From the NCBI GenBank assembly GCA_951406725.2, contig OX597818.1, forward strand, positions 37,634,001-37,698,000: DNA of 64,000 nucleotides. The letters run 5' to 3'. The position numbers and the translations under genes are program-made. Below, piece by piece: positions 6,837 to 63,947 of the stretch (the first letter of the stretch is position 1; each line of letters starts with the position of its first letter). Under the pieces are notes generated by a model that was not told the DNA's origin, did no database searches, and saw nothing but the letters and a program-made list of their open reading frames with translations. This DNA is from Octopus vulgaris. Taxonomy: Eukaryota.

Positions 6837-7446
6837 GTCGTTGGGTTTTCCCACGCCCGTCTCCGCGGGACCACTCTTCCATCTTCCCCTCAGCTGGAGT
6901 CCTTTTTCCTTAACCGCCCCCTTTTTCGTTACACACACGCGCCCACATATACACACATTGCTTAAATATATACATTACGTGGTAGTATTACTCGCCATTA
7001 ATACTACCACGACACTGGACACACACACACACTACTACTCAACACACGCTGGCACGCTACATACGCCCCACCCCTTCCCCTCCCTCCCTTCCTCCTTCCT
7101 TCTTTTTCTTACTACTGACCTTTGTCTGCTAAGCTGACCACTGTCTCGCCCTACCTCACACGCCTACACACAGACGCACACACTAACACATACATATATT
7201 TTTTGTTTTTTTATCTCGCCTCACACACACACATACACACACGCACACGCACACACTCACACATACACACACATCTGTTGCGTTACCAACCTTGTCTCCA
7301 CTCTTTTGCCTTTAAAAACCTACTTTGCTCTTGTTATCGTAAACATCCGCCTTTCACCATGTGCAACTCGTAAATACCAGTCGTTTTTTTTCTCTATCCC
7401 TGTTGCCCGCTCTGGGATCTTTCTTTCCTCTCTCTTCCTTCTTTAT

Positions 7447-7481
7447 GTTTCCGACGAAGAGCTCCGCTCGAAACGTCATAC
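7447..7481 (+). ncRNA. minimal hammerhead ribozyme, family A (CCGACGA core variant)
   Basis: gttt-CCGACGA-a-gagc(tcc)gctc-GAAA-cGTC-atac. Confidence 0.7.
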
Positions 7482-7641
7482 CTCCCTGCTTCCATTTCCT
7501 GAGCGCCTATTAATAATAATACTGTATTTGTTCCATTGTTGTTGTTTTTTGGGGGTTTTTTTCCCGTTTGGATTAAAATTATATATATATAGGACGTGGA
7601 ACAATAGTGTTATTGGACGCTCAGGAAAGGAAAGAAAGAGC

Positions 7642-7676
7642 ATCTAACGTTTCGAGCGGAGCTCTTCGTCAGAAAC
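7642..7676 (-). ncRNA. minimal hammerhead ribozyme, family A
   Basis: Minus strand gttt-CTGACGA-a-gagc(tcc)gctc-GAAA-cgtt-agat. Confidence 0.75.
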
Positions 7677-8121
7677 ATAGGAAAGGGAAAGATCCAAGGA
7701 AGGAAAAACGGAGGAAAAGCATCGCCAACGATACACATGCGGTCACATAGATAGATAGATATTATTGATGTAGTCGTTTTCATGCTCGCATGTGTACAAA
7801 GAGGATCAAAAGAATATTTTATTCAATAAAAAACAAATGTTCTGAATAGTAATAGCACACACTCACACAGACGTATGTACAGCGAATGTTCAAAAATAGT
7901 GGTTACGTTATTAAACACTCGATACTTTATTGACAAAAGAAGGGACATTTACTATTGTTATATATATATATATATTACACTGGTGAATCAATAAGTTAGC
8001 TTCTATACTGGTAGTTTTTAATCTAGGCAGTAATGTTCCAACTGATGCATTTTGAGCAAAGGTGTAGCCAGGTTCTAAAGTTAAGGGGCGCGAGCGCATG
8101 AAAAAGGCGCCTTGATACATA

Positions 8122-8639
8122 CCGTAAATCTTCGAGAATAGTCTGCCCTTGAGTATAATACGCAGGGGATTTTTAGGGGGCTGTACCTCTGAAAAACCTA
8201 AACCTTGTGTATAATACGCACCCCTTCTCTAACTTGAGCCGTGCGTAATTAAGCCAGCAGCACCTAGCCGAACAAACACTTCCGCACATGCGTAATACAA
8301 TAATGGTGATGTTCTTAACTGTTATATGGGAATGTAAATATGTTTACAAATTGTTTTACATGTTATTCTGTGTTCTGAATACTTTTATTTTAATAAATGT
8401 TGCTTACTGCAAGTTATGGATGATTCTTTTATGACTTCATTGCTTTCAGGCTTAGCTTAAGGTATTTTCGCGCCCGACATCACAAAATGCGTCTGAATAA
8501 ATGTTGCCGGACAGCAAATAGAGACTCGGACATTGCTTAGAAAATATTTTTCATTTTTAACCTCATATATAGTACGCACTAGGGATTTTGACCTTTAAAT
8601 TTTGGGAAAAAAGTGCGGATTATACTCGAGGATTTACGG
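8122..8639. mobile_element. Tc1/mariner-pogo-type MITE
   Basis: TIRs ccgtaaatcttcgagaata/tatactcgaggatttacgg with TA on both sides; second copy at 41013-41525. Confidence 0.85.
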
Positions 8640-9274
8640 TACTAAATAATTTTTAATTCATCTCTCTTATATTACGTGAAATATTTCATTGTACATGATT
8701 GTATTCTATATTCATTAATTTCATGTTTCAGTAGCAATGTCATTACATATGAAACTTACAAGTACTGATATAGGTAACTAAAGAGTTTAAAAAATGTGAA
8801 AAGGCGCCAATTTTGAATATTGTGTTCAATGGGGTGGTCACTCCTCTTGCTCCCGTATCAGCTACGCCACTGGTTAGGAGGTCACAGAATGACAGCAAGT
8901 ATGAAGGAAACGCTGGGAATGCAGGGGGTTACGAGTTTTCTAAGAAATAAAATCTTTTATCCAGGTGCAATACTTACATTTTAAACCACATTAAAAAATA
9001 TGCTATTCGAGATAAAAAAAAAAAAAACATCGTTGTGTTATCAGTGAACATAAACATATCTGATAATACATCAAGTTCCAATATAATTTTTTCATATAAA
9101 CCCCTCACCTACTTTAATAATTTTCATAATAATTTAACATAAGAGGCGTTAGTAAATGTAAATATTGAAAAACAAGGCACACACCATGTGGGATAGTAAA
9201 TGAAAACAGAGTTAAAACCCTTATTTACATTATTTACATTCGACGGATATTTGTCCTCATCTTGTTTGTTGTTA

Positions 9275-9318
9275 ACACAACGTTTCGGCTGATATATCCT
9301 TCAGCATTCTTCAGGTGT
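9275..9318 (-). ncRNA. minimal hammerhead ribozyme, family B
   Basis: acac-CTGAAGA-atgctga(aggatata)tcagcc-GAAA-cgtt-gtgt. Confidence 0.75.
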
Positions 9319-9425
9319 CTTGGGGAAATTTCGAACCTGGGTTCTCATTCCTAAAGTATTTTTCGATGTTGTTATTATTATTATTTACCTTAGGAATGAG
9401 AACCCAGGTTCGAAATTTCCCCAAG

Positions 9426-9469
9426 ACACCTGACGAAGGTTGGAGGGTATATCAGCCGAAAAGTTGTGT
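9426..9469 (+). ncRNA. minimal hammerhead ribozyme, family B (stem III C>A change)
   Basis: acac-CTGACGA-aggttgg(agggtata)tcagcc-GAAA-agtt-gtgt. Confidence 0.65.
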
Positions 9470-10682
9470 TAGCAACAAACAAGATGAGGACAAATATCCG
9501 TCTAATGTAAATAATATACATAAATCCTCATCTCTTAAATATAGAACAGAGTTAAAACCACCGTGCAGAATTAACATCTGTTGAATAAAATTATATACCG
9601 TTTTTTTTTCTCAAAGCAAGGGTAGGAGGCTTTTGTAAAACGCCATTCTGTGAAATGGACGCTGGGTTACAAATAGTTGAAAATCATTGCTTTACTGCGC
9701 AACGGTGGTAGTCTGGTTTTCTTTCCTAGTCAGGACTACTTTCTTCCTCAAGGAAGAATCTGAAAGTGGAAACACAGTTTTCACAAAGGTATTTTTTTGC
9801 TGACGTATGTCTTTGCCTATAAGTGTAATTATGTATACGTTTGTTTCAGTGAGTACTCTTTTATGTCTGTAACTATCTGTTCGTGTCTGGACTCAAGTCC
9901 TGTATTTTGGTATATCTAGAACTACATTGTCCAATGTGTTCCTCAAATCACCAAATGTACATTAAATCACGCGGTAGGGTGTAACTGGAAAGCAGATTTA
10001 ACTTGCTACAAGTAGGTCGAGCGCCGACTAAAGGCTTCCTCGTTGGCTCGCAGCCACCTGTGAATCTGAGTATGTGTATGAATGTATGTGTGTATATGCA
10101 TATCATACTTTTTCTCATGAAAAACATCACAATATAGGCTGAGTAGTTAAGTGGATGGTGAAGTGAGGAGGTCGGACATCCTCTTAAGTTCTTAACTACA
10201 TTATTCTTTTATGAAGTTTATTCGCTATAATTGTATCACTAATGCAAGTGAAAAAGACATTGATATCGTATACTAGCATTCATTTTTCCGAATACATAGC
10301 TATTCCTGTACCTCAATTGTAAGGCAGCACCGGATGCCGTAGAAGATGATGTAAACCAAGTTAATTAATTTAGAGAATAAATTACTCAGAGTTGGTCCCA
10401 ATGCATTAATATGTTACCTTTTAGTTAGCTCAAGGTTTAGTCCAGTTATACCGTTAAAACCTCAGATGAAAGGTATGAACATTACAGTATCGCATTTCTT
10501 TTTCTTCTATAAAAAATACAGACATTGTTTTAAGTGAAAACAAAACCATTATAGCAAAATAAAGGAGAGCTCCCTCCGAACCATGTCTATAATAATGCTT
10601 TTAGCTTTGATTGAAACTTATTTATTTCATTTATATGGTTAATACACTCGAGTAACTTATTAACATAATATTCTCATTCTCC

Positions 10683-27605: not shown

Positions 27606-28954
27606 ACTTGCAAAATTTACGATTCAGTTTCCTGTTTTGGTGGTGGTGGTGGGTTTAAGATATCAAATCAACATTGTAGAGTGGTCAAAACCAACCCCTT
27701 TTGCAATGGCTAATACTAATTCAATGACAGTTTATATTAAGTACAATCTTTGGTGTTTCGGTATTTAATTCATTATAACAATGTTGTTAATGATTTGTAA
27801 CATTTTAATTAATGCTGCCTAGCCTGACTCAAATGCAATTTTAAAAATTTATTATCATTTTTTTTCTCACGTTACCTGAATGTTAACACTTGCAATGAAC
27901 GTTTGATATCTGAAAGGTTCTCCAGCCCTACTAGGTTCTCAACCTGCTGGGTAAAGCAGCCAAATCGCCTTCGAACCGCACATTGTCGTCACAAAAAGAA
28001 AAGACAAACTTAAAAAAAAACAAAAAAAATGGTTACCTTAGATAAGGTGATACTAGATGCATTACATCTAAGAAAAAAAAAAAACGAATGGAGTGGTGCC
28101 GGACAGAAACCCTGTCTTTGAGTACAGATCTTCCAGCTGAGTAGGACCTGGTCTAATTAACAACACATAGTGTAATACTTGATGCCTTACATCACTTCTA
28201 GTACTCCACACCAATCATACCTACAACGAAATCCGATTCATATAAAATATAAGGAGTTTTAGTTTCTCTACGCATGACAATCTGTCGACGTTTATCGACA
28301 CCAAAGTGCAAGCAGTTTTTAGTGTGCGGCAGCTTCTTGTTGACACTGGACTGGAATAAATGGTGACAATATGGTGTTTAATGAAATGGCACAGTAAATT
28401 TATCAGATGAAATAGCTAATGAGAATTGATTGGATTAGTATTGGTTAGCTCCGGATATTTAATGTATACACAAGTACACACATTGTTTGGTTGACAGGTT
28501 GAGATGATTAGTTTGGCAGATATGGAGGTTTATCTGAAATGTGTAGTTCAAACCTCTTTGCGAGTAAGAAGTGATGACCAGTAACTGGTGGGTCATAACT
28601 GGTGGTGATAATAATGATACAATTACTTATTTTTATAATCTAGATGTTAGTTTTACACCTATGTACAGCTTCATAAAAAAAGGGTGAGTATTTGTGTGTG
28701 TGTATTTTTATATATATATGTATGTGTGTGTGTGTGTGTGTATGGCGCGGTATTATATATATATATATATATAATAATAAATATTAGGGAATAAATCCAA
28801 ATTTACAGGGAAAAAAAATCAGATTTAGGATTAAATCCAATTTTATAGTAAAATATTATATAATATTAATTAGAGACAAAACCACTATTTTGCAAAACAA
28901 ACAAGGAAAGACTTAATCAATACATAAGATTTTAATAAAAAGTCAAAAAAACCG

Positions 28955-28997
28955 CCACTACAATTGTTTCTTGTCCTGATCGACAATCTTCAGGTGG
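28955..28997 (-). ncRNA. minimal type I hammerhead ribozyme, family C
   Basis: Reverse complement of 29192-29234. Confidence 0.85.
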
Positions 28998-29032
28998 ACT
29001 TCCAATTTTCAAGTCAGTTTCAAATTATAATT

Positions 29033-29159
29033 TGATTGCCAAGGGTTACTTGAGACTAGTCTCAGCAACACAGTATTTGTACTGATTCCATTTCCTCTTG
29101 TAATTTCTTTGAATAAGAAAATCTGTCAAAGTTTATCGAACCAAAAAGCACAAATACTT
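29033..29159 (+). repeat. 127-bp exact duplicate of 31119-31245 at the palindrome axis
   Basis: Base-by-base identity, same orientation. Confidence 0.9.
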
Positions 29160-29191
29160 CATAATTTGAAACTGACTTGAAAATTGGAAGT

Positions 29192-29234
29192 CCACCTGAA
29201 GATTGTCGATCAGGACAAGAAACAATTGTAGTGG
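29192..29234 (+). ncRNA. minimal type I hammerhead ribozyme, family C
   Basis: ccac-CTGAAGA-ttgtc(gatcag)gacaa-GAAA-caattg-TA-gtgg; palindromic ACAAUUGU stem III; GUA site after 29230. Confidence 0.85.
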
Positions 29235-29317
29235 CGGTTTTTTGACTTTTTATTAAAATCTTATGTATTGATTAAGTCTTTCTTGTTTGTTTTGCAAAAT
29301 AGTGGTTTTGTCTCTAA

Positions 29318-29357
<40 letters not shown>

Positions 29358-29494
29358 CAAGAATGTTATCGGACTGAACATAAAATCAAGCTTTAATATA
29401 TATTACAGTTCTATATTTGAGAGACGAGGAATTATGTACATTATTTACATTATTTACATTTGACGGATATTTGTCCTCATTTTGTTTGTTGTTA

Positions 29495-29535
29495 ACACGT
29501 TTCGGCTGATGTATTCTCCAGCCTTCATCAGGTGT
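29495..29535 (-). ncRNA. hammerhead family B, small deletion at the cleavage site
   Basis: acac-CTGATGA-aggctgg(agaataca)tcagcc-GAAA-cgtgtt. Confidence 0.6.
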
Positions 29536-29601
29536 CCTGGGGAAATTTCGAACCTGAGTTCTCATTCCTAAGGTATTTTTCCGATGTTATTATCATTATT
29601 A

Positions 29602-29668
<67 letters not shown>

Positions 29669-29759
29669 TCACTATCCGAGTTCGATTCCAGGCAGTGACC
29701 TGAATAATAATAATAATAATACCTTAGGTATGGGAATCCGGGTTCGAAATTCCCCCAGG

Positions 29760-29799
29760 ACACCTGATGAAGACTGGAGAGTACATCAGCCGAAACGTT
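29760..29799 (+). ncRNA. hammerhead family B, 3' strand of stem I deleted
   Basis: acac-CTGATGA-agactgg(agagtaca)tcagcc-GAAA-cgtt-aac. Confidence 0.55.
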
Positions 29800-30208
29800 A
29801 ACAATAAACAAGATGAGGATAATTATTCGTTAAATGTAAATAATGTAAATAATAAATATATGTATATAAGGGTTTTGCATTAAAATTGTTTATGTGTGTG
29901 TGTGTGCCTTTTAGTATGTGTGTATTTTTAAAGACTGATATTAAGCTACTCAGAAGTAGTTTGAACTAGATGAACAAAACTGAAGAAATTATATTCTAAA
30001 TGTTTTTTTACGTGACAAAAAAATCCACGCTGTCAAAAACGTTCTTATTCAAAGAACTGTGTCTTGATTGAAATAATCACGATAATAATGAGATTTTCTG
30101 GACTTATTATGGCAATTCCGTATTGGATTTTATTGCTTCAAGTGTTATATTTTAAAAGTCGGAGTACGTTCTCCAGTCCGTAACAGAAGTCTGTAGTGTG
30201 CGTTTGTG

Positions 30209-30264
<56 letters not shown>

Positions 30265-32327
30265 TGTGTTTGTGCGCGCGTGCGCGCGTGTGTTTAAGTG
30301 TGAATAAAAATCACCGTACCAAACTTACATTTATGACTAGCTTTTGAATTATTCATACACACTGAATAACTTCCGTTTCTAATCCTAGAAGTCTAATATA
30401 CTTTAGGAACAATAGTGTCGTTGGATGTAAGATTATAATGAGTTATTAAGTTCTCAGGAACCTACAACAAATATTACACGAAATTCTTTATTGTATGAAT
30501 AATTGTCTCTTGTGCCAAACCTACCCTGGTTTTTCCCAGTCCATTTCGTCAGGATTCATACTGATCGCACTAATCACGCTCATTCTTTCCTTGTTATGAT
30601 CCCAGATTACTTCTTTCGATCTCATCAGACATAAAGATGAATAAAAAAAAAAAGGAACCTAAAAGCTGAATTGAATAGACGTTACTTATCAATTATTTCT
30701 TGTATATCGACATACGTACGGTTTCTCAGTTACACTCGGTACACTCCAAAAGTTCTCCATTAACACTCATATTGCGCCTTTTACCGTGGAAACTAATTTT
30801 AACTTCGTAGCCAACTTTCCTTGAATAATTTTGTTTCACAAACTTTTAAAATCTTAGTTTTTACGAAATTGCAATATGTGTGAGTATATCTCTCCTACAT
30901 ATTTTTTCCACATTTTTTCTTCTATTTACTTATTCAAGCATCGTCAGTCCAATATATTATTTTTAACATCACGACTTCCTAAATAACCATCCTCTATTGC
31001 AATGAAAAGATTTGAAATTTGAAACACAACTTCCATTGGTTTAAATTGGTTGTTTTTAATAGAAATCATTCACCATATATTTTATGTAACTAGGTTCTCA
31101 GTCTGCGTTGACAGTCCGTGATTGCCAAGGGTTACTTGAGACTAGTCTCAGCAACACAGTATTTGTACTGATTCCATTTCCTCTTGTAATTTCTTTGAAT
31201 AAGAAAATCTGTCAAAGTTTATCGAACCAAAAAGCACAAATACTTTTAGTGTATGGCTGCAATACGTTAACAATGGACGGGTACGTATATAAAAGCTGAT
31301 GTCATGTCTTACTTAATTTATTAGAACGTAGAATAGTTCACGAGAATTGATTGGACAGCATTGATCAGCTCCGGATATTTAATGTCCAAGTAAAGTTTGG
31401 TATCTTATGTCCATTGTATTCTACAAAGAATATCATTATTCTGCTCTTCGAAAAAGTTCGAAAAGAATTAACTACTGCAAGCTTCGTGTTCATTGACTAA
31501 CGAGCATTCTTTCGATCTCTAGATCGCGTATGAACGGTTCCAGTTACTGAAATATAGTGCAAATATATCTTACTCATGTTAGCGTTACCATATTAAATAC
31601 AGTGAATATTAAAAAGCTAATCAAAAATAATTATACTGTGATGAAAATGCAGAATAAATTACTATTATCTTAATGATCTCGCAAGTACGGGAGACAATTC
31701 CGGGCATGTTTCCGTCTTATTAGACCTCCTATAAAGACTTCACTGTACAAACTGAACCAGTGATGACATAATCATTAAACTGCTTTAAAATATTGGGCAC
31801 GAGTAGGGGGCCATAATTTAGCATAGTTTAAAGCAAAGGCTTCCATAAGTTTTCGTTCAATTTTCCCTGGTAACTTTTTGAAATTAATTTTACCCCCACA
31901 TTCTGTTTTATTCGGTAATTTGAGTTTGTGCTTCTACCACAATAAAACAACCGACAAAAAGGAAATTTAAAATACTGTCTCTAAACTTTATTATTTTAAG
32001 TTCAAATAACAATAAAACTAACACGTAACATCGTTATTTCACTCAGACGCAGACTTCTGAATGAGACTATTCTTTTAGAAGAATAATTAAAAAGTATGCA
32101 ATATAAAGAAGTAGACAGAAAAAAAAAGTATATATTTTCACAAACGAGCTCTTCTTCAAGCTTTCTACTCAACTTCAGATTTTTAAAAAAAGTTTATAAT
32201 TGAAAAAACATGCACACATCTAGAAACAACAAATTTACCCCCTGGGAGTAAATTCACCCCAATTTTGGCACTCCTGGTTCAGAAAACAAATTGATCAGAG
32301 AAAATTACATACTAATTTATTACCGTG

Positions 32328-32411
<84 letters not shown>

Positions 32412-33880: not shown

Positions 33881-34333
33881 AATGGACGCCCACCGACGCT
33901 CTAATGAGTCTGCTCTACCGCATTATAGTCTAATATATAATTGCTTCAAATGTTGACATAGAGCGAGTAGTTTTTAGGGAAGTGGGTTAGTCGGTTACGT
34001 CGACCCCATTTCTGGAGTGTTAGTTTATTTTATCGACCCTGAAAAAAATAAACGATCAAGTTGACATCAGAGATATTTGAACTCAGAACATAAAGAGCTG
34101 GGAGAAATGCAGATAAGTATTTTTTGTCCGACACGCCGACGATTCTTCCAGTTCACCACATTAATGATATCAAATTTTGACACAAGGTCAGCAAGTCTTA
34201 TTAGGAAGAAGATAATCGATTACATCGGCCCCAGTGTTCATTTATTTTATCAACCCTTAAGGAATGAAAGGCGAAGTTGACCTGAATATAATTTGAAATC
34301 AGAACACAAAGAGACAAAACAAATAGAGTTTTT

Positions 34334-34748
34334 GGATCTTTTCGGTTTGAACGGCAGTTTTTTCTAGCGGTGTCATATGAAATTGTCACCCATAATTATG
34401 ACCCTAGTATCGATCTATTGCATTTCAATCTCTTTTAGGGTTAGGGTTAGGGGTGAGGGAAGGGTATTTTTTCTTCACAAATGTAAATAAACCCAATCTG
34501 TTTCTTAAACGAGGGACATATTCATACGGCACAGAATGTTTTTTACCTCAATAGGCGTCACTGATTGGTTGAAATTGCAGAAATTGAAGAAAAAAGAAAC
34601 AACAAATATCTTACAAACTATAGAATTCTGTCAATAAAGCCAAGAGAAATAGATGTTTTATAAACACATTCTACCAGTATACGAAGTTCAAAATGTTTTA
34701 GTTACCTAGAAATTATGTTAAAAACTGCCGTTCAAACCGAAAAGATCC
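34334..34748. mobile_element. MITE with about 29-bp TIRs and internal (TTAGGG)3
   Basis: ggatcttttcggtttgaacggcagttttt/aaaaactgccgttcaaaccgaaaagatcc; flanks gagttttt/aagttttt. Confidence 0.8.
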
Positions 34749-34928
34749 AAGTTTTTTTTTTTCAATGTTTCAACGATGTTGCCAGCTCCACGCCCTTTAC
34801 AATTTCTTTTTAGATAATAAAATCTATTCAACATTTTAATATTTGCTAATTGTAAAATAATAGAGCGGACAAATCGATGGACTTGCCAGTGTTTTTTTTT
34901 ATTTCAAATAATAGTATCTGTAGGCAAT

Positions 34929-39040: not shown

Positions 39041-41012
39041 TTTTCCTAGAGTAAGCTCATATCAAGGAACACGTGACGACCCAATACACTTACAAAAGAC
39101 GACATCTTGTTGTCAGTGGTGGTGTTGGTGGTGGAAATGATGTCGTTGCCATTTATACTGTCATCCATTTAAATTAACGTTTCCAACACTACGCTTATTC
39201 ATGTTTTCCATTGCACAACAGCAAGTGATTATGCTTGAAGCCGAGTCAGTTTGTTTAATTTTCATGCTATCATTTTTTTTTAAAGTCAGCTCTTGTTTTT
39301 GAAAACGAAGTGGACGCTCAAATGATTTTCCAATTAACAAGGAAGTTATCCTTATATCTTCCTGACTGGAATACATCATCATTTTCACCTTTTCATTTTC
39401 GAGCGAAATGTTTACAAATGTACATCGAGATTGCTTACGCAATATAGTTCATGGCAGTCAGTTGTGTGTGTGTGTGTGTGTGCGTATGTTTGAATATATG
39501 GTTTTGAGGACGATATAGCCCAGTGTAATTATGATCAATTACGAAACATCTGTGCATACGCATGAACTGTTTTCAGAAAAATTTATTCATTATGAGTGAG
39601 AAGTCTACGCTGCGCTTAAGTGTGTAAGGTGTGTGTGTATATATTCATAATGTATATATTACATATATTCTTACATATGTATATATATATATATGTACAT
39701 GTATGAAGTATGTATGTATGTATGTATGTATGTATGTATGTATGTATGTATGTATGTATGTATGTATATTATAGTTATGTGTATATGTATATGTATGTAT
39801 GCGGTCTCTGTGTGCGAGAATGTGTATGTTTGTTACTTGCGTAACGTTTTAGGGATTTGTATAGAGGTACATATATAGGAATTACAAATCTTGCCAGGAA
39901 TGCAGCAATGTGCTGAGATGTGGAGGGAGGAGGGAATACGCGTGCGCGTGAGTGTGTGTGTGTGTGTGTATGTGTGTGAGTGCGTGTGCGTGCTTGTGTG
40001 TGCATTTCTGTGTGTTTGTGTGTCTAAAAGATTAGCAATATATACTTTAAGATGGCGGAAGTAATGAAAAACTGCTTCTTCTTTTAACGTGGTTTCCGGC
40101 AATGTTTCGCTACTTTAAATTTCATTTAAGCGTATAAAAAATTATTCCCCACCCTGCACTTACATAGACATCAAAATTATATTTCATTTACTTCAGGCAG
40201 AAACATTATAGCTGGTTTGCTGCGAATTCTATTATGAAATTTGCAAAATAGGCTTAAAATCGGGATGGGTTACTGACATACTATTCCATTATTTCTGCTG
40301 GTATCAACGTGGGAGTCTCAACGTGGTTTGTAGATATGCTGGATATAGCAGCCAAATATTCCTTCAATCCCATCCTGACATCTTAGGAAAGAGGGACTCA
40401 TTGGATAATATTATCTTAGTGTGTTGTGTGTTGTGCCTGGTGTGGTTACAGTTAGGATGCGTTTGATCGTAGCTCTGCATGATTAGAACTAACTTGAAAT
40501 TAAACAACAACAACAGGAACATCAGCCGCAATTTCTATTTGATATTTTGGCCATTATGTATAGATGTTATAAATATATACAAGGAATCTTTCTCCGTGTT
40601 GTAAGAGGCTTTATAAAACATTTAGGAATAATTCCTTGGATTTCTTTTGAAGTAAATATCTGGAATAAATCCGATAGAGTACAGGTCATGAAAAACGACC
40701 TAATTCATTATAGACTAGTGTTTCTAGAAACGTTCTTCTCCCAAGATTCCTTTTTAACAGACGAATATTCTCAAGAGCCTCTTTCAGTGTAATTAAGTTC
40801 AATACATAATAAAATAGCATAAAACGTGATTGATTATTTTAAACAAACGAAAAAATTATTGCCAATAACAATTCAAAACTTAGAACATTTTTAACGATAT
40901 ACATACAAGATCACACAAAATTTTACTATTAGCCTTTCCACTATAGGCACAAAGCCTGAAATTTTGTGGGAAGAGATAACTTGATTACATCGACTCCAGT
41001 GCTCAACTGGTA

Positions 41013-41525
41013 CCGTAAATCCTCGAGTATAGTCTCCCCTTGAGTATAATACGCAGGGGATTTTTTAGGGGGATGTACCTTTGAAAAACCTAAACCTTGT
41101 GTATAATACGCACCCCTTCTCTAACTTGAGTCAAGGAGGTCTATATAACGTCCTTGGTTTGTAAAAATGTATACGGTAACGTCCTTTATTATTATTGTAT
41201 ATATAACATAATGCAAATGTGTAGCTTTTTTCGTGCATTTTGTTTGCAGAAAATAAAGAAATAACAGAAATAACGTTTAATAAATGTTGCTTACTGCAAG
41301 TTATGGATGATTCTTTTATGACTTCATTGCTTTCAGGCTTAGCTTGAGGTATTTTCGCGCCCGACATCGCAAAATGCGTCTGAATACACATAGCCAGACA
41401 GCAAATAGAGACTCGGATTTTTCTTAGAAAATAATTTTCATTCTTAACCTCGTATATAGTACGCACTAGGGATTTTGACCTTTAAATTTTGGGAAAAAAT
41501 GCGGATTATACTCGAGGATTTACGG
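41013..41525. mobile_element. Tc1/mariner-pogo-type MITE, second copy
   Basis: Same TIRs, TA TSD, inserted in an S1-like remnant. Confidence 0.85.
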
Positions 41526-42918
41526 TACTTATTTCATCGACAATTACAAAAAGTGTCTTGTATGAATGTCTCCAGTGGGAAGTTGCTGTGCCGAAGCGCA
41601 TCACATTCACTTTGTCAGTGATGTTCTTAAGGAAAAACCCCATGTTCTTAATAGCTGAACCGTATTATATTCACCACCGCCGTTTAAAATTTCACAGAAA
41701 TAAGTGTAACAGAAATTGTTGAAAAGCTACCATTGCTAATTCAGATTGTATTGAAAATGGTGTATTCACATTTACCCAAAATATATTCAATTTATATATT
41801 TAATTATTCATTTCTTCCAAAAATTTCAGTTTGAATCGCATGACAACTCTGCAAACCCTACTTGAGCCTTCAAAGAAAGATGTTTAACCAGTTTCATTGT
41901 TATAATAAACAGGCTTGAATCCAATCTAATTTTTAGCATTGTCTATGTCGGGTCAAAAATATCTGCAAGATTGTTTTCCCATCCACACTGAAAGCTTGAT
42001 AATGATATGCTTCATAGATTTAAGAGACAAATTAGTCTTACAGACAAAACCATAAGTCTAAGGAAACATTTCTTGCCTGTAAACAAGCAAGAAATGTTTC
42101 CTTTAAATTTACCTTTCAAAATGATAATTTTGGTGTTGTGTTCTCTTCTCGTAGAGAACAATTAAGTTAACTGAACTTCTCAGTTATATACCCTAAATAG
42201 TATAATTATCAAAGCCAATTTTCATCACGAAAGAATTCTTGAAATTTTAGTCATTTTTTCTCTGAAAAGCACAAAATCCTGTATTTTTTCCCCCTTGTAT
42301 TTTAAAGCCTTATTAGTTTTTCTTTTTTCCTAGGCCTTATCAATTTCTTTTTTTTCCCCTCGCTTTTTATATGAGGGAAAAATAAAGTTTGCTAAACTCG
42401 GATCCAATATCCTATCAGAGATTCGCGAATAGGTGGCTATCCGATGCGTGACATTTAATGAAGTCGATCATTTTAACGGCATCTCGTATTACCTACCACA
42501 CTTCAGATATGAAACTTTTTTTTTTCCTTTTTTGGCTGCTCCTGATTCTTCACGAATCATGTCAGAAGTGAAAGAAATAAGTATGTAAATATAGTTTAGT
42601 GTTAGAACCTGATATGACATACTCTACCGATGCTTTTCATGGTTTCTCCCCTCATACTTTAGCCTGTGTAGGCTGAAAGACCCTGAGTTGTAATGCAGTC
42701 AATTATCAGCTTCGAAAGAATTGGATCTACTATACGCATTGGGTATTTTCTCTTGCTTTTGTTTTCTTTTTTTTTTGTTTCACACACACACGTATCAAGT
42801 CTTTGTTTTTATGTCATGTTATATATGGAAACAATTTAACATTAATCGTTTTAGTAGAGTACATATTTGTACTCTAGCAAGCTCAAACTTCAAAGTTACT
42901 GTCACCCCCTGTTACAGT

Positions 42919-48866: not shown

Positions 48867-51325
48867 CAGTGGTTCTGAACCTGTTCGCTACCACGCCTCT
48901 CCTAGGAATTTGTCCTTCTCTCCACTTGCATCAATGAATAAAATTCCCTCCTAGATTTTAAAATAAAATCTAAAATATGTTTTTTAAAATAAAATCTAAA
49001 ATATGTTTTTAGTCACATCATACAAAATATGTATAATTTTATATATAATCTATTTTACAAAAAGTGAGATACTTGACACTGCTTCTTAGCAAAAAATAAC
49101 ATTTTTTTTATTGAATACGAATTAGTCACATTATTAGTGAGATACTTGATACTGCTTCTTAGCGACAAGATATTGAATGCGTGGCTGAATGCCAGAGAGT
49201 GCACAACGTAAGCCCCTTTCAACGTTTAGCCTGCTTCTGTCCTTGGTCTAGACATCAGCAAGCGTGGAAAGTGCAGCTTCACAAAGATACGTGGATCCAA
49301 ACATAGTTAAAACCCTAAGAGCCTGATGTGAAATCAGAGGGTAAACAGGAAGGTACTTGATCCAGAACGTTTCAAGTCCAGTTGTTTGAAGTCTCCCTTA
49401 GCTGGGAAGTTGAACTTCAGCTCAAGAAACTCTGTTTCCACTTCACCCAAAACATCAGTCACTTCACACTGAAATGCGTTCCTGATGAATTTCCAAGCTT
49501 CATGCTTTTCATCTACATTTGGGAAGTATCTGATGAATTCTGTTTTCAAGTCAGTTAAATGAGTGATTATTTGTTTCTTTAACTCAGAATCAAGGTTACC
49601 GTGAATGAGAACAGAATCCAAATAACTAAAACTGGTTATATTTCCCTGCTGAATTCGACATTTCCAAAGGTCGAGTTTGGCCATGAAGGTTCGAATGGTG
49701 TCGTGGTGTGTGAGAATGTTGATATTTTCCCCTTGTAGTTTAAAGTCGAGAGCATTCAATGCTTCGACGATGTCCACCAGGTAAGCTAGAGACAGATGAA
49801 AGCCTTCAGACTGGAACTTGTCATGGAGATCTGCCTTCTGCTGCAAATCTAGAAATATTGCTACTTCCTCTCATAGTTCATAAAGCTGTCCAAACATGTT
49901 CCCCTTTGATAGTCATCGTGCGTTTGTGTGAAAAAGCAATGTTTCATGTTCAGATTCCATATCTTTACAAAACAGTTTGAAAAGACGACTGTTTAAGGGT
50001 CCACCTTTAACAAAGTTGACAACCTTGAAAGCCACGTTCAAGACTTTTCTCATTTCAGGAGGTAAGGTTCTGATTGCTAAGGCTTCACGATGAAGTATGC
50101 AGTGTGTACTTACAACAGATGGATTTGTTTCTTTCACCCTAGTAATGAATGCAGACTGCAGACCAAGTATGGCTGGAGCTCCCTCAGTGCACATCCCTAC
50201 CAGCAAATCCCATGAAAGTTGGTCTTCCTGAAAGAAGTTTGATACATCACGAATAATAGCTGCTGCTGTTGTAAAACTATCCATAAAGTGACAGAACAAT
50301 ATTTCCTCTTTTACACAATTGCCTGACACAAAACGAGCATATACCAGCAGCTGAGAACACTGGGCGGTGTCAGTCGTTTCGTCACACTGAATGGCAAAAA
50401 CAGGAGAATCTCTTGGTCGAGAATTTGATCTTTGATGTCTTGGGACAAGCCGTCGATATCGTTTGACAGTGAAATCTGGGAAAGCTTGTTTGCATTATCC
50501 TTTCCCAGAACGAGTTCTGCTGCACGGAGTAGACTTAGTTTTATGAGAGACTCTCCGATGTTATGGCTCTTCTTGCTCTTTGCAATCAACATGGCGATCT
50601 CATAGGAAGCTTCAACAACCATTGGAGTTTGTTGCCGAAATTCCCCGCTACCGTCCACCTTAGCTTGCTTCAAGGAATGTTTTTTTTTTTGTTTCAAAGA
50701 ATGCCTTGTGTTTGTATGCAAGAGCAGGATGTGTTGTCTTCAAGTGCTGCTCCAAGCGTGAGGGTCGCACTCCATCATTTCTCAAAGTTTTGTAACATAT
50801 CACGCACTGGGGGAGTTCTGTGTCACCCTTATGGAGGGACACGAATCCAAATCGAATATATTCGTCAAGATACTTCCATTTCTTTGCACTCATTGCAAAT
50901 TATTTGATATGCAGTGGACAGCACACAATTGTAAACAAGGGATAAGACACGTGTAAGGTAAGGTCAAGGCCCGAGTTCTGAAAAAAAAATTAAAACAAAA
51001 AAATGTGGAATAAAAGTTAAATTAAAAGAAAAGTTATACGAAAAATTTGTACAATAAAATATCGCATTAATTTGTATGAAAATATAAAAAAAGTTTCTTT
51101 AAAAAGACAAGAATAGGTTTGAATAAGATTGTTTAGCGCCATTTCAGAGTGAAGTGATAATATTAGCGTATTATTGCCGGACTTTTGTAGCCAGCAGCAA
51201 GCGATAATGAAAGTAATGTAGCAATTTATAAAATTATCTCCACTGAATTTAAAATTAACTTTTAATTACATGTTGCTTTCATAGCTTATTCCACAGCTAC
51301 TTGCTCGTTGATTTGGGACTATAAC
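48867..51325 (-). mobile_element. hAT (Buster/Charlie-type) DNA transposon
   Basis: Terminus cagtggttctgaac at 48867 preceded by atctacag (NNNTANNN target pattern); the other end was not found, so the right boundary is approximate. Confidence 0.75.
49134..50893 (-). pseudogene. frameshifted hAT/Buster (ZBED5/SCAND3-like) transposase
   Basis: BED finger PQCVIC..HLKTTH, SLSND, CDETTD, CTEGAPA, THCILHREAL, LAYLVDI, GSTYLCEAA, ending QYQVSH*; split over at least 5 frame segments. Confidence 0.9.
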
Positions 51326-51395
<70 letters not shown>

Positions 51396-51601
51396 GAGAG
51401 AGAGAGAGAGTGTGTAAATAACATAAATCCAAAAGAAGAAGCACACTCTAATATGTACTGTAAAAAACATTAAAATTATATATATATATATATATATATA
51501 AAGTTAATCCAAACCTGAAAACACAGAGAAAACACAACAACGCGAGGACGTGGAACAAATATAGTATTATTTGACGCTCAGGAAAGAAGGAAAGAAGGAG
51601 G

Positions 51602-51636
51602 GTTTAACGTTTCGAGCGGAGGTCTTCGTCGGAAAC
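51602..51636 (-). ncRNA. minimal hammerhead ribozyme, family A (CCGACGA; stem II mismatch)
   Basis: gttt-CCGACGA-a-gacc(tcc)gctc-GAAA-cgtt-aaac. Confidence 0.65.
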
Positions 51637-51671
51637 ATAGAAGGAAAGATCCAGAGAAGGGAAGACAGAGG

Positions 51672-51709
<38 letters not shown>

Positions 51710-52198: not shown

Positions 52199-53040
<842 letters not shown>

Positions 53041-53057
53041 TATATATATATTCAAAT

Positions 53058-61105: not shown

Positions 61106-61512
61106 AGCAGGAGTGGCTGTGTGGGAAGTAGCTTGCTTAACAACCACATGGTTGCGGGTTCATTCCCACTGCGTGGTACCTTGGGCAAGTGTCTTCTACT
61201 ATAACCTCGGGCCAACCAAAACCTTGTGAGTGGATTTGGTAGACGGAAACTGAAAGAAGCCCGTCGTATATATGTATATATATATATATGTGTGTTTGTG
61301 TGTCTGTGTTTGTCTCCCCCCCCCCCCCAACATCGCTTGACAACCGATGCTGGTGTGTTTACGCCCCCGTAACTTAGCGGTTCGGCAAAAGGGACCGATA
61401 GAATAAGTACTAGGCTTCCAACGAATAAATCCTGGGGTCGATTTGCTCGACTAAAAGCGGTGCTCCAGCATGGCTGCAGTCAAATGACTGAAACAAGTTA
61501 AAGAGAAAAGAG
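61106..61512 (+). mobile_element. SINE family S2, full length
   Basis: tRNA-like head, CORE-like segment, LINE-like tail. Confidence 0.85.
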
Positions 61513-62101
61513 ACAAAAGGTTGAAGTGAAAATAAACAAATAAATAAATAACTATATAAATAAATAAATAAAAACAATTGCTAGATTCGATGCGTTTATA
61601 TCAATTTGGAAAATACGTTTGTATCTGTGTCTCTGTGTGAGACAGCTTGTCTAACGAAGTACGAGTGTAATTCTGTATTCATGAATAAGGCGTGAACATC
61701 AAGCACAGGTGGAAATGAGGTGAGGAAACAATGATGTCAAATGGTGCATGCTCGCAATAAATTGACTTAATGAAACAAGCTTGAGCATGTTTGTGTAAAC
61801 TGAGGTGTTAAGAAGGAAGCTTAAGCAATACAATCTGTTGATAAGGACCACCAAGCTTTCACACACACATACGCACAAATATGCTCATACATATACGGAC
61901 ATACTTGCGCACACACATTTTTATGACTTAAAGGAGCAAGCACCGAAGTCAGCTCTAAGGGCCTTTGACTTGGAGGTGAAATGAAAGGAAGAAATTACTT
62001 TAAGACCAGGGACTTAGACCGAAAGTTTAAGACAGAGTGGGCTCTATTAAGAGTACACACGGACCAAGTAGAGATTTTAAACTGAGTTATGGTTAATCCT
62101 A

Positions 62102-62429
62102 GTGGAGGCGCAACGGCCCAGTGGTTAGGGCAGCGGACTCGCGGTCGGAGGATCGCGGTTTCAATTCCCAGACCGGGCCTTGTGTGTGCTTATTGAGCGG
62201 CGAAAGAACCTAAAGCTCCATGAGGCTCCAACAAGGGGTGGTGGTGACCCCATTTTGTACTCTTTCGCCCCAACTTTCTCTCACTCTTTCTTCCCGTTTC
62301 TTGAGTAACGCTGCGATGGACTGGCGTCCCGTCCAGGTGGGGGGAACACATACGCCACAGAAACCGGGAAACCGGGCCCATGAGCCTGGCTACGCTTGAA
62401 AAGTGCGCATAAATAAATAAATAAATAAA
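62102..62429 (+). mobile_element. SINE family S3
   Basis: 13-bp TSD atggttaatccta at 62089-62101 and 62430-62442; (AAAT)n tail. Confidence 0.9.
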
Positions 62430-63585
62430 ATGGTTAATCCTAAGACCCAAGAGTGGAAACAGATCCTCTGGCGGATTTCCACAGTTCCCGTTAACGAAAT
62501 TTTGCCCTTTAGACTTTGATCAACACATGAGTATCGTATGATTTGCCCAAATTGCCGAGTAGTGAAATTGAACCAGAACCATGCAATAACGAAGCGAACT
62601 TCTTAACCACACAGCCATACCTGCACCCATTTGGCTATCTTTACTCATCAATTGTGCTACTTTCTTTCATCGGTTCAGCAAGTACATTCATATCGATTAC
62701 ATATTGATGGTTCACAATCGTTGGATTTAGATAAAAAAAAAAAAAACAATTGTAAGAAACAAATAATAGAAATTGTTGGATTTTGATGGATCACTCAAGT
62801 GCTGATTGGCAAAGAGTGCAATACGAGTGCTTTTGTCATGGCTTAAGTTCATATCGAGTGCAGGGATGGCCAAACGGTTAGGAAGCTTGATTCATAACCA
62901 CGTGGATTCGGGCCCGATCTCGTTGCGCGGCATCTTAGCCTCGATTGGTTAAAAATTACGTGGAAACACACCAAAGGAATCGTTCCTGTTCTTGGATGGT
63001 AAGCTTAATCTATCACTTGGCCTTTGGATGTCCTTAGCGTTCGAAAAGCTTTCCAGTCTGAGGATATCTTCTTCCTACTAGATTCCAGAGGCCCTGCAAA
63101 TTCATAGGGATGATTCCCTTCTGTTCTGATTAAATCTTTTTTTTTATCAAGATATGGCATAAGTACTTAAAGAAAGCATGAGACTGGGTCTTATACATAA
63201 ATTCATCGAAAACTAATCCAAATCAGCAGTTTTCTACTATCCAGGTAGTATCAAGCGATATCGCAGGTTTCCTGAACTAATCACTTGGTTAAAACACTTC
63301 AATATGACTTGTGTGATCATATGCAACACACCAATGCAAGAGGCTATCTCATGGCCCATTGTACCAAACCAAACATTTGTGACACAAATTTACGTGTTAA
63401 TATATTTCTTTTGATCAAAGCACTCCCGTTAAATCTTTCCATGTGATCATCAATGATTCGTGTTCGTATTCCTTCGCCAGCACTGCTTTCTGTTCATAGC
63501 TTACATCTCTGTTCTGACTTGTTTAGCACGTTAGGCGTAAGTCAACTAAGTAGTTACAAAGTCACACGCTTTCTTTAAGTTCTTA

Positions 63586-63947
63586 CTATTTTACTTGTTT
63601 CAGTCATTTGACTGTGGCCATGCTGGAGCACCACCTTTAGTCGAGCAAATCGACCCCAGGACTTATTCTGTGAATGCCTAGTACTTATTCCATCGGTCTC
63701 TTTGGTCGAACCGCTAAGTTACGGGGACGTAAACACACCAGCATCGGTTGTCAAGCGATGTATGGACAAACACACACACACACATATATATGCATATATA
63801 CGAAGGGCTTCTTTCAGTTTCCGTCTACCAAATCCACTCACAAGGTTTTGGTCGGCACGAGGCTATAGTAGAAGACACTCGCTCAAGGTGCCACGCAGTG
63901 GGACTGAACTCGGAACCATGTGGTTCGTAAGCAAGCTACTTACCACT
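63586..63947 (-). mobile_element. SINE family S2
   Basis: Matches other S2 copies. Confidence 0.85.

Follow-up and report, generated by a model that had tools for sequence, protein, structure and literature searches.

Penelope-like elements (PLEs) are described as leaving inverted, 5'-truncated copies with one-sided tails and palindromes at the junction, and the parts of these papers drawn on here call the origin of the inverted structures open (PMC3846280, PMC8557442). When purified, a PLE protein cuts its target on both strands and extends each of them; reverse transcription begins at two positions, which mark the limits of the tail, and no ribozyme cleavage is needed in vitro (PMC11167929). 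Metazoan PLEs carry hammerheads with a short palindromic helix III, a design for folding as dimers (Cervera and De la Pena 2014, PMC4209133), and PLEs are reported to have been active recently in octopus (PMC13282606). We analysed 64,000 nucleotides of Octopus vulgaris DNA (contig OX597818.1, positions 37,634,001 to 37,698,000; "the window", numbered from its first letter). The window contains a pair of inverted, hammerhead-bearing arms that are likely to be fragments of a PLE, with an exact 127-bp copy of nearby DNA between them. We propose that this copy was probably made while the element was being integrated.

Nearby DNA is copied into insertions and breaks in other systems. For L1, 22 templated insertions copied from nearby genomic DNA are described, usually shorter than 250 bp and with the template no more than 15 bp from the site (Zumalave et al., 10.1101/2024.08.27.596794), and another study gives three such cases along with inverted reverse transcription products joined end to end (Mendez-Dorantes et al., PMC11702581). 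DNA polymerase theta leaves inserts of 3-30 bp (Carvajal-Garcia et al., PMC7165422) and is error-prone (van Schendel et al., PMC5068794). In Adineta vaga, the pseudo-long terminal repeats (pLTRs) of Penelope elements enclose host DNA: the spacers of Pen1, a nonribosomal peptide synthetase (NRPS) gene, and sequences between solo pLTRs (PMC3846280).

Structure of the element and its insert

The insert at 29033-29159 is identical to 31119-31245 over 127 bp (100%, same strand, offset 2086), just as had been claimed in an original prediction that was made from the letters of the window. The donor lies 1789 bp from the right target junction. This pair is the only 100% direct repeat of at least 30 bp in a self-BLAST of the window, and it is the longest exactly repeated block that is not simple sequence (the next are 83 bp, within the arms, and 70 bp). 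We are confident that the arrangement in Table 1 is real.

Table 1. Features of the element and of the donor (window coordinates).
Feature	Position	Strand	Comment
(TA)n run, left end	28754..28773	.	likely remnant of target microsatellite
One-sided 3' extension ("tail"), ~80 bp	28775..28856	-	aligns to the one-sided extension of 52373-53045
Left arm	28857..29028	-	fragment from the 3'-terminal repeat of a hammerhead-bearing family, likely Penelope-like and very abundant
Type I hammerhead motif, palindromic helix III	28955..28997	-	predicted cut at 28959
16-bp palindrome	29020..29035	.	29029-29035 is a 7-nt extension, apparently copied from the arm's own complement
Insert	29033..29159	+	exact copy of 31119-31245; overlaps TGA (left) and TT (right)
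Right arm, no tail	29158..29330	+	begins TTC, where other family copies begin the long arm
Type I hammerhead motif, palindromic helix III	29192..29234	+	predicted cut after 29230
(TA)n run, right end	29325..29354	.	likely remnant of target microsatellite
Donor of the insert	31119..31245	+	single-copy (run contigs)

The arms (28857-29028 and 29161-29330; 172 bp) are inverted and 98.8% alike, so their description as near-identical was accurate; they differ by two single-base indels and by no substitutions. Both arms carry a variant at 28976 that is missing from 77-99% of the family's sequencing depth in the public runs described below, so both would derive from one source copy. Across 297 compared sites there are no substitutions, which bounds the divergence below ~1%, and the insertion event therefore appears to be young. 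The axis is a spacer-less palindrome, as predicted, but it is slightly longer than 29021-29034 and extends over a perfect 16 bp (29020-29035). Similarly, the start of the right arm is repeated on both sides of the insert, but over 9 nt (29027-29035 and 29161-29169) and not 8.

TGA at 29033-29035 was already proposed as a microhomology at the left switch, and we confirmed it. Three other features were absent from the original prediction. First, the tail is on the left arm only, and its outer edge merges into the TA run. Of the two arms, it is the shorter left one that is tailed; the tail-less right arm extends 3 nt further at its 5' end. (In the public runs, many copies of the family lack a tail and end in (TA)n at 28857.) Second, TT at 29158-29159 overlaps the right switch. 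Third, a single extra C at 29160 separates the end of the insert from the start of the right arm at 29161. The element has (TA)n on both sides, and a target-site duplication is not readable inside (TA)n.

The 3' half of the donor overlaps an old dispersed repeat, with two diverged copies that lie on either side of the element (28257-28491 and 31184-31401). The donor-side copy and 28257-28491 share 159 identities and have 53 mismatches in the aligned stretch, which rules out 28257-28491 as the donor.

The donor and its alleles in public sequencing runs

Six of 24 public sequencing runs contain at least half of the query words, and we examined four of these (X1-X4), which come from four samples and four studies. 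One of the four may be the source of the window sequence. Contigs from the runs were aligned to 28780-29430, and 29315-29430 was skipped as repeat, so the empty site lies outside the coverage.

In each of the four runs, the middle of the 127-mer is on just one contig (depth 60.8, 16.5, 39.4, and 48.3 in X1 to X4, at 88% likeness); the copy in X4 has one different letter. In every run, this contig carries about 866 unrelated bases before the 127-mer. As inferred from their lengths, the contigs start at 30252-30254, and those of X2 and X4 end at 32350-32351, which is where the GT repeats that flank the donor are. Because there is one low-depth contig per run and it is bounded by the donor's GT repeats, the contig is the donor locus, and the donor is real and single-copy in all four runs. 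The original prediction had raised the concern that the 127-mer might belong to the family consensus or be an identical repeat in many copies, in which case the match nearby would be a coincidence. The old dispersed repeat under its 3' half would be compatible with that, but the single low-depth contig in four of four runs largely refutes it, and we find this explanation hardly credible. In comparison, the summed depth over most of the arms ranges from thousands to over 1 million (this is not a copy number), versus 16-61 for the single contigs, so the arms are likely to belong to a family of thousands of copies.

Alleles that lack the insert had been suggested as something to look for. The contigs from X2 and X4 pass 31245 unbroken, so these two runs are without the insert allele. 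In X1 and X3, 31245 is the very last base of the contig, and the successor contigs begin 30 bases earlier. The summed depth of the successors is 81.5 in X1 (versus 60.8 for the donor contig) and 64.3 in X3 (versus 39.4). If both successors were placed, then the ratio of junction to donor is 0.39 in X1 and 0.76 in X3. The break in X1 and X3 fits a branch to 29160 in carriers of the insert, and this is indirect support for the insert allele being polymorphic. The break at the right end may instead arise from a different allele or from an unrelated branch.

One such different allele would be expected if the structure formed in two steps. The right arm would have inserted with a 1.9-kb target-site duplication, with its 5' end at 31245; insertion of the tailed left arm would then have deleted most of the duplicate, and the 127 bp would be the residue. 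A break at the right end only, as in X1 and X3, is what the intermediate allele predicts, and Dualen LINEs (long interspersed elements) are described with target duplications of median 900 bp (PMC9977147). But one source copy would have had to insert twice into a single TA run, with the two ends no more than 3 nt from a common point. Also, the depth of the successors is above that of the donor contig in both runs, and the donor contig in X3 is not above the junction contigs of other copies (29-88 among those listed), so no duplication is evident in X3. We consider two steps to be quite unlikely.

Origin of the insert

We think it likely, although not proven, that the arms are terminal fragments of a PLE. 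This assignment is from sequence features: a hammerhead motif lies inside the terminal repeat; the copy is inverted, 5'-truncated, and head-to-head with a palindrome at the junction, and the same type of joint is found in other copies; the target is a microsatellite, (TA)n; and the summed depth declines from the 3' end toward the axis, as 5' truncation would produce. An older relative of this family is at 52373-53045, with arms that are 82% alike, a 232-bp AT-rich spacer, the same one-sided tail, and no hammerhead core.

How other copies are joined at the axis is informative about the junctions of the insert. Of 27 listed alignments across the joint, we removed two duplicates and one that did not reach the right arm, which left 24; 41 further rows are outside this count. 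Eleven of the 24 resume within 29150-29165. Eight of these 11 resume at or before 29160, and six (with five distinct left ends) resume at 29158. Other family copies thus read TTC before 29161, and because they begin the long arm with TTC at 29158, C29160 appears to be derived from the element. Since TTC would belong to the start of the element, TT at 29158-29159 would be a 2-nt overlap with the end of the donor. Fillers of 1-17 nt are common at the axis of other copies, so the axis behaves like an end-joining scar. In another copy, from X3, nearly full arms (29026 to 29161) are joined via a filler of 9 nt; this filler looks like parts of the 5' end of the arm itself, which suggests repeated self-templated filling at the axis.

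We propose that the insert is probably a templated patch that was made during PLE-type integration into (TA)n and that joined two cDNA ends. This proposal connects what is directly observed: two arms of which one is tailed, the hammerhead motifs, a single-copy donor that matches exactly, and a short overlap wherever the template changes. An endonuclease and reverse transcriptase (RT) encoded by an element and acting in trans would cut both strands of the TA run. One cDNA would be primed from each end of the target, with one starting in the tail and the other at the tail-less start site. The 3' ends of the two cDNAs may first have paired by AT and been extended by 7 nt (29029-29035). The nascent end would then have slipped via TGA onto a nearby duplex, 1.8 kb away, and copied 124 nt. 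Switching back via TT onto the second cDNA's end would complete the joining. A mirror-image course of events on the bottom strand would fit equally well. The polymerase that copied the long tract may have been the element's RT or a host polymerase acting by strand invasion, rather than polymerase theta. A single cDNA that folded back with the insert as its loop was rejected, as it cannot supply C29160. Neither arm can be a simple fold-back of the other in any case, because the longer arm is tail-less and the shorter arm is tailed.

The insert might instead have been added later. If a spacer-less palindrome inserted first and a replication fork stalled or broke at its hairpin, then host repair, through template switching or a theta-like end joining, could have added the 127-mer and duplicated the first 9 nt of the right arm. 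The 9-nt repeat that flanks the insert is the expected trace of such a jump out and back, the TT overlap would exist in a perfect palindrome too, and the whole element is predicted to fold as DNA into a very stable hairpin (-199.9 kcal/mol). However, a perfect palindrome would not hold C29160, so repair would leave this base untemplated, yet it matches the family start TTC. Repair by polymerase theta in particular is disfavoured: its inserts are described as 3-30 bp, with first tracts that are rarely over 10 bp (PMC7165422), and as error-prone (PMC5068794), while the tract here is 124 nt, perfect, and from 1.8 kb away. We think that later repair is unlikely. The original prediction had offered both PLE-type integration and theta-like repair of the palindrome as sources of a templated insertion. 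The single-copy donor supports local templating, and because C29160 appears to belong to the element, capture during integration is favoured and theta-like repair of the palindrome is not.

Several observations weigh against capture during integration, or against parts of it. The allele in the window predicts a branch in the assembly graph at both ends of the 127-mer, and a left branch was seen in none of the four runs. Nor does any listed contig piece from these runs span either junction. Graph cleaning by the assembler could drop the left path, since it leaves the deep trunk of the family. These gaps would also be expected if the structure, or its left junction only, were an artefact of assembly or of reads. 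Both differences between the arms are single-base indels in short runs, which is like long-read errors, and inverted PLE structures are described as troubling assemblers (PMC8557442). On the other hand, two runs from different samples and studies break at the exact base of the right junction. The asymmetry of tail and no tail matches the sister element, and the match of C29160 to the family start is not expected from a chimera. We therefore view an artefact as very unlikely.

The argument about timing leans on one base, C29160, and on the 24 joints, and the microhomologies of 2-3 nt are weak (the probabilities by chance are 0.175 for C, 0.019 for TGA, and 0.11 for TT). The tail is ~80 bp, both here and in the copy at 52373-53045, versus the usual 30-40 bp. 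In L1, templates are typically within 15 bp of the site, versus 1.8 kb (1789 bp) here (10.1101/2024.08.27.596794). The autonomous member of an endonuclease-positive PLE family encodes a telomerase-like RT with a GIY-YIG endonuclease; we found no such partner among the frames of the window or in motif scans of metagenomes, so the PLE label leans on non-coding hallmarks. (None of the 29 window frames of at least 120 amino acids looked RT-like by eye, a Pfam scan of six of these 29 gave no match, and metagenome scans with two motifs of the family gave 0 and 0 matches.) Finally, none of the spacers of the seven other inverted pairs in the window has a local unique donor. This is a weak test, as these pairs are mostly older (mostly 75-92% arm identity, with one perfect pair of 31 bp). 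What their spacers matched was a SINE-like (short interspersed element-like) repeat inside one spacer, family relatives, a nested hairpin, and simple repeats.

The original prediction had expected that frequent local matches of spacers would reveal a general mechanism, and the zero of seven in this window does not bear that out. We suggest only tentatively that PLEs routinely integrate as two separately primed cDNAs and that their joint is a repair hotspot that copies 0.1-2 kb from 1-3 kb away; on balance we doubt it. If so, short-range duplications throughout animals would have a PLE-specific source, whose reach differs from the 15 bp of L1, and the inverted-pLTR structure would be accounted for by routine joining of two cDNAs. 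Taken by itself, the locus amounts to one small non-coding duplication, and the copy shows no spread. Its junction is unusually readable, with a tail-less longer arm, a tailed shorter arm, and an exact local donor that marks each template switch. These features favour a model in which two cDNAs were joined at their ends over one of self-priming fold-back.

Hammerhead motifs, neighbouring elements and known systems

We scanned the window with a hammerhead descriptor that required helices I and II of at least 4 bp. Two of its three matches are the arms of this element, with type I cores that face outward. Both motifs have the core CUGANGA / GAAA / UH with three helices. Helix III consists of a palindromic loop closed by one or two pairs, and two copies of the motif are predicted to co-fold as a double hammerhead (-24.2 kcal/mol). 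The ribozymes had been called intact. That holds for the core bases, but stem II closes with U-A in both arms instead of the conserved G10.1-C11.1, and Rfam does not recognise a hammerhead: at gathering scores there were no matches in the whole window, and at E ≤ 10 over 28700-29900 there were only hairpin-shaped matches, all far under threshold, which we treat as chance.

The outward-facing ribozymes had also been proposed as a route for sequence capture or transduction. We find no support for this. The two motifs do not share a strand, and a transcript of the entire element is predicted to form one extended hairpin (-315.7 kcal/mol, z -37) in which all of the motif is base-paired and so would be buried. 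The palindromes at 9221 and 29433 likewise have outward-facing minimal cores on each arm, and the layout is ordinary for such palindromes here. No extra dispersed copies of the 127-mer were found in the four runs examined. We also rejected the idea that ribozyme cleavage set the junction, as the cut sites are ~70 nt from the axis. Most likely, the product is an inert hairpin whose ribozyme motifs have no part in the capture.

Besides the focal family, the window contains other palindromes with hammerheads. The copies at 9221-9523 and 29433-29860 form a second family, with minimal cores on both arms. The latter begins 100 bp from the focal element and has a nested hairpin with 28-bp arms at 29646-29721 in (ATT)n. 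A third hammerhead-bearing inverted pair is at 7420-7706, with arms that are 75% alike and an intact core on the - strand of the right arm; its orientation appears to be inward (tail to tail), unlike that of the others, and it has relatives at ~952-1142 and 51503-51678. The sister families at 9221, 29433, and 7420 appear to differ in how hammerhead helix II closes.

Four other features of the window are of different kinds. The 419-bp element at 34332-34750 has perfect terminal inverted repeats of 31 bp and looks like a young DNA transposon of the MITE (miniature inverted-repeat transposable element) type. Broken frames at 49334-50739 (-) have motifs that we take to resemble a hAT-type transposase, and a Pfam scan of three of these frames gave no match. 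The youngest other direct pair in the window is 8120-8643 and 41011-41529, which are ~95% alike over ~370 aligned bases and 33 kb apart. Two inverted copies of a common repeat lie within 61121-63946, 2.1-2.5 kb apart and ~91% alike.

Among known systems with hammerheads, animal non-LTR (non-long terminal repeat) retrozymes are head-to-tail tandem units that each carry a hammerhead. Here there are two inverted arms and no tandem unit. The hammerheads of PLEs, as described by Cervera and De la Pena (PMC4209133), are closer: these have a type I core, a helix I of 4 bp, and a short palindromic helix III suited to dimers, as do the motifs in this element. The differences are that stem II closes here with U-A and not with G10.1-C11.1, and that the motifs are on opposite strands, so the element supplies no tandem partner.

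The structure as a whole most resembles insertions of endonuclease-containing (EN+) PLEs with inverted pLTRs (Arkhipova et al. 2013, PMC3846280; Craig et al. 2021, PMC8557442; Frangieh et al. 2024, PMC11167929). The accounts in these papers share with our element the head-to-head arms, the palindrome at their junction, the extension on one side, a hammerhead in the repeat, and an AT-rich microsatellite target. Our element differs in having no open reading frame, in the length of its tail (~80 bp versus 30-40 bp), and in having a host segment with an identified local donor at the inverted junction. We found no description of a local donor at a PLE inverted junction, with a reach of 1.8 kb, in the literature that we searched by title and start of abstract (subscription papers were mostly outside this scope). 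Host DNA between pLTR copies is described in Adineta vaga, as non-element DNA is found between the arms here (PMC3846280). There, the enclosed DNA is a kilobase-sized spacer or a relocated gene, mostly between direct pLTRs, and the parts of that paper drawn on here name no local donor; in our element the copy still lies 2 kb from its donor, with no sign of spread.

The switches themselves are like those of polymerase theta, which aborts synthesis and re-primes from microhomologies of 1-3 nt (PMC7165422, PMC5068794). AT, TGA, and TT are in this range, and the 7-nt extension at 29029-29035 fits well. But the inserts of theta are taken from the immediate flank and are error-prone, while the 124 nt here are perfect and from a distant template. 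In L1, as proposed here, genomic DNA of under 250 bp (127 bp here) is copied in during integration, and opposite ends are each extended by RT and then joined by microhomology (10.1101/2024.08.27.596794, PMC11702581). L1 is another class of element, and in our case each of the two arms represents a 3' end. That templated inserts occur at the junctions of a retrotransposon is already known from L1; what this locus provides is a local donor at kilobase range at the inverted junction of a likely PLE.

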